DNA from: Mitosporidium daphniae
Lineage: Eukaryota
DNA: 43,940 nt
Direction: 5' to 3'
Assembly: GCF_000760515.2 (NCBI RefSeq)
Contig: NW_013546467.1
Coordinates: forward strand, 1-43,940
Shown here: piece by piece, positions 23,423-26,237 of the stretch
Numbering within the stretch: position 1 is the stretch's first letter
Layout: the number at the start of each line of letters is the position of its first letter
Made by a program: the position numbers and the translations under genes
The notes under the pieces: model-generated
The model's input: only the letters and a program-made list of their open reading frames with translations
What the model was told of the DNA's origin: nothing
Databases searched by the model: none

Positions 23423-26237
23423 TTAGCTATTGTAAAGATCCCCATCAATTGAACTAGCTTCCAATTCTCCTGCATCAGTGGCAGAGGAATTGTCCCCAAA
23501 CGCACTTGAGGCGAACGAAAAGGAGGATTCATAACCACGGGACTGTTGCAATGTTTGTGCAAAAGACTCGTAGCGGCGAATGTCAGTGTCGCTAACGGAA
23601 CGACGGGCAAATTTGAGAGCTTCCTCAAAGTGCGCACGCGTGATTTCTGGGACAAGGTCCTCTACTTCGCCCAGGTCCATCATTTGGGCATTGGGCTCCA
23701 TAACTTGCATGGCCTGGTCCATATCGTCACCTTGTTGTGTCTCTACGACCTTGGCCTGCTTTGTTGCGGCAGCAAGCTCGGCCTCTATGGAGGCACGAAT
23801 GGCAAGCTTGCATGCACGCTGGCAGATTTCGGTGAGATCGGCGCCAGAAAACCCTGAAGCCCATTTTGCGATTGCATTAAGATCGATGTCTGCGGAAAGG
23901 GGCGATTTTCGAAGTGTCGCCTTGAGAATGGCCAGCCTTGATGGTTCGTCTGGAAGTGGGATGTATATCAGCTGATCAAGGCGACCTGGACGTAGGAGCG
24001 CAGGATCGATGTGATCGGGACGGTTGGTGGCGCCAATGACAAAGACGTTCTTTTTGGCCGCCATGCCATCCATCTCGGTCAGCAGTTGATTTAGCACACG
24101 GTCAGCAACGCCCGAATCGCCCATGGATGATCCGCGCGCCTTTGCAATGGAGTCCAATTCGTCAAAGAAAAGCACACAAGGTGAAGCTGCTCGCGCCTTG
24201 TCAAATATTTCACGCACATTTGCTTCGGACTCGCCGAACCACATTGTCAGCAGCTCCGGGCCCTGTGATCTTAAAAATACGAAATCGATACCTAGAATTA
24301 ATGTGCGAAACTTTGTACCTTGACCGAAATAAAGTTGGCCTGGCACTCGTTGGCAATGGCCTTCGCGAGGAGCGTCTTACCGCATCCTGGAGGCCCATAA
24401 AAAAGCACGCCTTTTGAGGGTGACATGCCGAATTTGAGGAACTTTTCCGGGTGCTCCACTGGATACTGTACGGTCTCCTGCAATTCGCGCTTGACTTTTT
24501 CTAGCCCTCCGATGTCTGCCCATTTGATGGTAGGCACCTCAACAACGGTCTCCCGCAGTGCTGATGGATTGGAGGCGCCCATGGCAAACTAGAAAAGTAA
24601 ACATACGACGATATGCACGCACCCTAAAGTTTTCCATGGTCACTGCAAGCGAATTAAGCACCTCGGCGTCGATCTTGTCATCTTCGAGGTCGATGAGCTG
24701 CATTTTTTCTCTGATTTGCTGCATGGCTGCTTCTGAGCAAAGCGATGCGAGATCTGAGCCCACATATCCATGTGTCTCTGCCGCAATCTGCTCCAGGTCT
24801 ACGCCTGGAGCCAGCTTCATGTTTTTCGTGTGAATACGCAGCACATCCAAGCGGCCAGATGGATCCGGAATGCCAATATCGATCTCGCGATCAAAACGAC
24901 CAAACCGGCGCAATGCTGGATCAATAGAGTTGGGGCGGTTGGTAGCGGCGATAACGACGACGTTTGAACGGCTCTTCATGCCGTCCATCAACGTCAAAAG
25001 CTGTGAAACTACTCGGCGTTCAACCTCTCCATTTGTCTAGACGAAAGGTAAAGTCGATCGAAAAATATGGGACAGAAAAGGAAAGGGCAAATCGGACACA
25101 AAAAGAAAGGGGAAAGCTAGGCGCACCTTTTCACGCTTCGGTGCGATCGAATCAATCTCGTCGATAAAGATAATCGCGGGTGCATTTTTATCTGCCTCCT
25201 CGAATGCCTTCCGAAGATTGGACTCGGACTCACCGGCCATCTTGGACATCACCTCAGGCCCGTTAATGAGGAAGAAAAAGGCGCCCGTTTCGTTGGCCAC
25301 TGCACGCGCAATCAGCGTTTTTCCCGTTCCAGGCGGTCCAAAAAGCAAAATGCCTATGGTGAATAAAACGACACTGTACCTCTTGGCGGCTTGATGCCGA
25401 TACTCTTAAAGAGTTGTGGGTGGCGCAGGGGCAGCTCGACGAGCTCGCGGATTTGGGCCATCTGTTTACGGCAACCACCGACGTCATCATACCCGATTTC
25501 GTTCAGATTGCTCTCCTCGTCCTCGCGTTTGATCGGAGAACCTTCAAAATGGATCACGGTCTCCGGAGCTACGATGGCCGTAGGCGATGGTTGGCAATCG
25601 ACAACCTTGAATTCCACAGCACGCATGCCGCCGCGAACCAAAAAATAATCATGCAGACGGATGGGGCGATATGCGTCCAGGAAATATGGCTTCAAAAATA
25701 CATCAAAGATGTTTCCAGTGACACCTTCCAATGTATCGTCGATAGGAAGGACATGGATGCTCGTGGCATATTTGATGTCCGAATGAATTTGCACACTGAC
25801 GATGTCGCCCAATTTGACGCGGATGTTCTTCCTTGTCACTAAAATCTAAATGCTCAAATTACCTAAGTGTTGTTAATGGAGTCATATTTACCCTTGTTGA
25901 GCTGGATGCGGATGTCGGCGCAGCCTTCTTCGGAGAGTACCACGGCAACCGTGTCCTTTCGACGCCTCCCTTTGATCAGAATGGTGTCTCCGCGGAAGAA
26001 CTGCAGCTCCTCCATCTTTTTTGGCGACATGTACACAATTGAAGAGTCATCAGAGCTGGATTCGTCAACGAGAAGCTTGTTCGGAGACGCTTTGCCTTGC
26101 AAGATTGCCGTAGAAAGGTCACTTGCAAAAGATTAGCTGATAAGTAATTCCTACTCTTTGCCCGACTTCGATGGGTCAACGACGATCTTGTGGGCATCAG
26201 CGATCGGTGATGCAACTTGACTGGGTGGTGGCGACAT
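23423..26237 (-). CDS. CDC48: AAA+ ATPase Cdc48/p97/VCP, 7 coding exons
   Basis: [65 protein letters not shown]. Introns 26122-26154, 25839-25891, 25354-25379, 25037-25126, 24589-24622, 24263-24318. Confidence 0.97.
24263..24318 (-). other. Tandem micro-intron pair (27+29 nt) with zero-length exon in CDC48
   Basis: AAG|gtacaaagtttcgcacattaattctag|gtatcgatttcgtatttttaagatcacag|GGC. Removal restores NFISVK-GPELL. Confidence 0.7.
25839..25891 (-). other. Tandem micro-intron pair (29+24 nt) with zero-length exon in CDC48
   Basis: AAGG|gtaaatatgactccattaacaacacttag|gtaatttgagcatttagattttag|TG. Removal restores [15 protein letters not shown]. Confidence 0.65.

Follow-up and report, generated by a model that had tools for sequence, protein, structure and literature searches.

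Ratchet points of animals lie mostly in long introns, on the kilobase scale. Recursive splicing through a zero-nucleotide exon is known, as far as the accessible text of the sources goes, from both Drosophila and vertebrates (10.1101/006163, PMC8605326). The preliminary description of the DNA analysed here had associated recursive splicing with very long animal introns; the phenomenon is indeed described there, but it is not confined to them, since the available portion of a report on Cryptococcus neoformans presents the recursive splicing of a 375-nt intron of BOT1, removed as 210 and 165 nt around a zero-nucleotide exon (10.1101/224170). In a related arrangement, the stwintron, a splice signal of the outer intron is split by the inner intron, whose removal has to come first; introns that merely abut are filed under recursive splicing in the part of the source that is accessible (PMC6616335). 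For Lipomyces, the available text proposes an origin via new splice sites arising within an older intron, termed 'stwintronisation' (PMC7138796).

The locus reported here belongs to the CDC48/VCP gene of Mitosporidium daphniae and lies in a stretch of 43,940 nucleotides (contig NW_013546467.1), which is referred to below as the window. Two inserts of this gene, pair 1 and pair 2, are each composed of two abutting GT-AG units (Table 1). The arrangement seen in pair 1 is a real, non-random structure, and it is found twice in this one essential gene. In both inserts an acceptor is directly followed by a donor and the mRNA retains nothing of the insert, as is characteristic of recursive splicing. 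Like the accessible account of BOT1, the CDC48 inserts present two abutting fungal introns in an essential gene with no exon base between them; however, the junctions and branches of BOT1 have been demonstrated and its parts measure 210 and 165 nt, whereas the CDC48 pairs (27+29 and 29+24 nt) consist of units of modal length and are known from sequence. With the ratchet points of Drosophila and vertebrates the inserts share the juxtaposed AG/GT inside an intervening sequence (a slash marks the splice boundary), but the CDC48 introns are shorter than 60 nt, both of their halves are complete and either order of removal is possible. They also resemble the stwintrons of the accessible literature in being complex intervening sequences of two U2 units; classification as a stwintron was nevertheless rejected, because both CDC48 units keep intact GT and AG ends and nothing is interrupted. 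No abutting micro-introns in print were present among the matches listed in the full-text literature, a scope outside which supplements and most subscription papers fall, and the terms 'recursive' and 'nested' are absent from the accessible text of three papers on organisms with short introns (PMC13644364, PMC12862383, PMC13685798). As regards abutting introns of the recursive type at the micro-intron scale, we thus found no earlier micro-intron case in print.

Table 1. Coordinates of the features discussed, numbered from the first base of the window. Percentiles are ranks among the short introns of the window.
Feature	Position	Strand	Description
CDC48/VCP gene model	23423..26237	minus	7 exons, 840 aa; introns of 33, 53, 26, 90, 34 and 56 nt
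CDC48 exon 6	24319..24588	minus	ends in phase 0 with AAG; Pfam AAA positions 1-30
CDC48 exon 7 (last)	23423..24262	minus	Pfam AAA positions 31-131, AAA_lid_3, Vps4_C
Pair 1, whole insert	24263-24318	minus	56 nt; GT start, CAG end, TAG/GTA after 27 nt
Pair 1, unit a	24292..24318	minus	27-nt GT-AG; donor 31st percentile, acceptor 86th; in-frame stop
Pair 1, unit b	24263..24291	minus	29-nt GT-AG; donor 34th percentile, acceptor weak (14th); frameshift if retained
Inner TAG/GTA of pair 1, candidate zero-nucleotide exon	24289..24294	minus	boundary between 24292 and 24291
Pair 2, whole insert	25839-25891	minus	53 nt = 29+24; built like pair 1, TAG/GTA inside
Pair 2, unit a	25863..25891	minus	29-nt GT-AG; donor 69th percentile, acceptor weak (3rd)
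Pair 2, unit b	25839..25862	minus	24-nt GT-AG; donor 86th percentile, acceptor 59th; in-frame stop
CDC48 intron 4	25037..25126	minus	90 nt; no inner AG after base 10
Primase large subunit intron	18036-18105	minus	70 nt; AG-free from base 8 to its end
Argonaute intron	36549-36743	minus	195 nt, about 7 times the modal length; fixed by homology
Intron	39401-39426	minus	26 nt; bypasses CAG at 21 nt
Small gene	38081-38385	plus	four introns (20-24 nt), two of which enclose an 18-nt exon

It had been claimed that the 56 nt of pair 1 must leave CDC48, and this holds. Excision of all 56 nt produces the open 840-aa frame, positions 1-30 of the Pfam AAA domain close the upstream exon while positions 31-131 open the downstream one, and the number of residues between the motifs xNF[IV] and GPELL is exactly three in 120 of 120 homologues. 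Since this spacing is shared by all of them, no micro-exon is needed at the joint; a micro-exon between the units was rejected, as AG and GT abut and the homologues leave no room for added residues. Identity between the deduced protein and 25 named homologues ranges over 70-77%, the aphelid Amoeboaphelidium ranking first by less than one percentage point. The region 23400-26300 is carried in one piece and without differences by the DNA runs X3 and X7, which makes an assembly slip unlikely, with the caveat that either run may be the source of the window.

The window is gene-dense, with 39-51% GC in 2-kb bins. The closest named relatives of its Imp4 and Argonaute proteins come from chytrids, Mucoromycota and Zoopagomycota, most Imp4 matches being at 57-66% and the top named Argonaute matches at 39-42%. 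An Argonaute at 71% identity (P0243) represents a close relative among the proteins compared. The CDC48 gene is flanked by two tandem arrays (31 nt, 4.1 copies, at 23246-23373; 24 nt, 3.6 copies, at 26411-26497), the former of which sits between the converging ends of CDC48 and a MIF4G (eIF4G-like) gene.

Introns were annotated by hand from frame breaks, which yielded 34, leaving out a doubtful one near 42230 and several small genes; RNA support exists for one of the 34. The great majority (29) measure 20-35 nt, with a median of 26 nt, and the five longer ones measure 53, 56, 70, 90 and 195 nt. The relatives of the window's proteins suggest a fungus of an early branch or a relative of the fungi; judged from the compact genome and from the introns near 30 nt given for Rozella in the accessible text of PMC6349667, it is probably a rozellid. 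The short introns of the window (n = 29) have a weak donor (GTA in 21), a T-rich 3' half and a terminal TAG in 23 cases, and they show an excess of A at positions -8 (13/29) and -7 (11/29). An AG ending more than 21 nt from the donor is bypassed in none of the 29. Near 39426, a layout of 21+1+29 nt with a one-base exon preserves the same frame, and was set aside for the simpler single intron of 26 nt. Of the 11 short introns with a length divisible by three, 10 carry a stop in the coding frame, a proportion biased by the fact that introns were found through frame breaks.

Against this background, the description of pair 1 as two full GT-AG units of 27 and 29 nt abutting at TAG/GT, both within the dominant short class of the window, is upheld on the sequence. 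The branch-like TTAA that had been ascribed to each unit is weak evidence, as the short introns show only the excess of A at -8/-7: unit a has AA at precisely these positions, and the TTAA of unit b stands at -12 to -9.

The preliminary description had also proposed that the orthologous intron be compared, and this was done at pair 1 with distant fungi. A pattern spanning the intron (21-81 nt, intron required, hence silent on intronless genes) retrieved 102 metagenome loci. Their nearest references are mostly basidiomycete, with a few from Mucoromycota, chytrids, nucleariids and animals, the lineage labels being rough because the set of named references contains no ascomycete. At the pair 1 position all of these loci harbour single introns of 47-79 nt, represented by 81 distinct sequences. 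A central YAGGT occurs in one of the 81 and YAGGTA in none, which indicates that the inner site is not generic to this position. Among the 102 loci there is no close relative with micro-introns, every intron being at least 47 nt long. Two of the loci (L028 and L029) are CDC48 matches located about 4.5 kb apart on one contig, and their 47-nt introns are identical. As for the other CDC48 positions in these loci, an intron is present at the pair 2 site in 3 of 49 (single in each), at that of the 90-nt intron in 58 of 60, at that of the 34-nt intron in 1 of 77 and at that of the 26-nt intron in 0 of 50. The three long introns of CDC48 sit at positions known in other fungi, and these two short ones are nearly private. 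Both doubles thus occupy positions that hold single introns elsewhere, and, for pair 1 at least, a single intron was probably the original condition.

Splice sites were scored with weight matrices built from the 29 short introns of the window, and ranked among these introns. The inner site of pair 1 scores 14.9, which is the 75th percentile of real short introns, and its combined donor and acceptor score is attained by 0.115% of 20,000 shuffles; for the inner site of pair 2 the proportion is 0.55% of 20,000. Two of the five long introns contain such a site, where 0.19 would be expected (P about 0.011 in the window), a value that is somewhat generous given the 34 hand-annotated introns, a site chosen after it was seen and a threshold (7.2) taken from pair 2. 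A scan of the window for YAG/GTR flanked by low-GC units of 19-40 nt returned five candidates, three of which were discarded: 12421-12481 faces the end of a gene on the minus strand, 26668-26730 is inside an open frame, and 37915-37836 is mostly opposite a plus-strand ORF.

These figures bear on the simplest of the alternatives, namely that an AT-rich intron happens to hold TAGGTA near its middle. A bare YAG/GT dividing the insert into two parts of 20-35 nt is found in 2-6% of shuffles (2.2% with mononucleotide shuffling, 5.6% with dinucleotide shuffling), it was encountered once among the 81 orthologous introns, and the site was picked out after the fact, all of which speaks for coincidence. 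YAG/GTA is present in 0.6-1.0% of shuffles. With two cases in one gene, all four parts of modal length, and the low rates obtained when the sites are scored, chance is nevertheless a very improbable explanation.

At the joint of pair 2, 72 of 120 homologues fit the search pattern, all with three residues, and the other 48 did not fit it. In addition, a 488-nt contig of run X1 (depth 3.1, a single base difference, CT..AC ends) skips the 53 nt as a whole. This run is one of two small, low-cover runs that were guessed to be RNA and were seen as contigs, and of the two doubles their coverage takes in pair 2 only. The joint shows the precise removal of the entire double, and an intron-free DNA copy in the isolate is possible. 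Because contigs drop rare forms, it cannot show in how many steps pair 2 leaves. No further spliced joints were found in the 20 kb examined in the two presumed RNA runs, which says nothing on expression. At 37733, an ORF differs in X1 by a 9-base insertion and two substitutions, a sign of another isolate.

Judged from the arrangement of the splice sites, the best reading of the two inserts is that they would be removed in two steps, recursively, through a zero-nucleotide exon, and we consider this reading to be somewhat probable. All four units (24-29 nt) fall inside the 20-35 nt range of the short introns, and the inner donor of pair 2 ranks high (86th percentile); against it stand the weak inner acceptor of pair 2 (3rd percentile) and the fact that the sole spliced joint in the RNA contigs is the whole skip of pair 2 at depth 3.1. 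In pair 1, short-intron definition would match the first donor to the closest good acceptor, which lies at a distance of 27 nt. Unit a would be expected to go first, because at modal distance the inner acceptor (86th percentile) outscores the outer one (14th); its excision would link the AAG of the exon with the second GT, after which unit b would be removed. For pair 2, the stronger second unit would be the first to leave. Either order would give an identical mRNA, and a half-spliced RNA that stalled would bear a premature stop.

A length-constrained spliceosome had been suggested as the reason for such behaviour, and as a strict rule this is contradicted by the introns of 70, 90 and 195 nt, which have no inner AG/GT at least 20 nt from their ends. 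The exons on either side of the 70-nt primase intron are consecutive on PF04104, and the 195-nt Argonaute intron bypasses AGs at 51 and 63. For microsporidia and their relatives, the accessible text of PMC6349667 carries the proposal that long introns house small RNAs. Two-step removal would stem from the presence of the inner sites and would not reflect a spliceosome unable to handle long introns.

The existence of these three introns also makes one-step removal of 56 nt feasible, and ordinary splicing, with the inner TAG/GTA either left over from an old duplication and mostly silent or tolerated as a cryptic site, is the main rival, although in our opinion a rather unlikely one. It is in agreement with the homology that fixes the Argonaute intron, with the 47-79 nt found at the pair 1 position in other fungi, where about 56 nt is usual, and with the X1 joint, in which pair 2 is missing as a whole. 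Furthermore, according to the accessible text of PMC10156609, conventional lariats prevail in human introns of less than 1,000 nt that carry recursive sites. On the other hand, with all detectable likeness gone from the rest of the units, decay of a silent site would be expected too; moreover, leaving a strong acceptor at modal distance unused would carry a cost, as each partial product has a premature stop.

It had been stated that in pair 1 retention of the first unit gives an in-frame stop and retention of the second a frameshift. Both statements are correct, and both products stop at codon 568. Together with those of pair 2, which end at codons 110 and 114, all four single-unit retention products stop early. 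This could be taken to mean that the inner sites act as a regulated or leaky switch, the half-spliced RNAs with premature stops being degraded so that CDC48 levels are tuned. The concentration of both doubles in one gene points in the same direction, three of the six CDC48 introns being long versus two of the 28 elsewhere in the window (Fisher P = 0.029). Yet stops upon retention are the rule here, as seen in 10 of the 11 short introns of length 3n, and the inserts have no conserved structure or known RNA: they fold no better than shuffles (z-scores of +0.9 to +1.3), and Rfam recognised no family in them, with one chance-level match outside (E 0.71). A switch is accordingly regarded as improbable.

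As to the origin of the doubles, a recent tandem duplication of the units was rejected, since their likeness does not exceed that between randomly paired introns. In one comparison, 131 of 406 control pairs scored as high as pair 1 and 59 of 406 as high as pair 2; in a second, 86/406 and 222/406 control pairs did so, and the longest shared words were ordinary. Across four scorings, a fraction of 0.32-0.46 of the 406 control pairs was as high as pair 1, and 15-24% were as high as pair 2. An old, diverged duplication is still plausible, because the window offers a 24-nt tandem duplication within CDC48 intron 4 (25070-25115, 86% match by TRF, reached in 0 of 1,000 shuffles), further tandem arrays with periods of 21-33 nt, and an AG/G repeat at both ends of pair 1. 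This repeat, which is matched in extent by 11 of the 32 other scored introns, could guide slippage. Old tandem duplication of a whole intron is the origin to which we incline, at close to even expectation. Gain of inner sites within an intron of ancestral length fits an ancestral intron of about 55 nt and the route of 'stwintronisation' as set out in the accessible text of PMC7138796, and is a conceivable, if doubtful, source of the doubles. A new intron may also have been inserted at a junction that was already there, both doubles being at positions of single introns in other fungi, but the arrival of another intron at an AG/GT junction appears an unlikely origin.

If the inserts are indeed removed in two steps, the CDC48 units would be about six times shorter than those of the shortest fungal recursive case found in print, and recursive splicing would extend from long introns down to the lower size limit of the spliceosome. 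Two spliceosome cycles would then have to act on 56 nt, and a ratchet site on such a length could not be explained by distance. In a more general form, which is put forward tentatively, introns of early-diverging fungal relatives with micro-introns may have been duplicated or split into stacks of 24-29 nt units that are cut singly, the inner site being kept by selection after the units diverged, and such a stack may have become fixed twice in one essential gene. Given two-step removal, intron units would multiply at one position without the appearance of a new intron position, and multiplication of this kind would be invisible to an annotation that records one intron of 56 nt.
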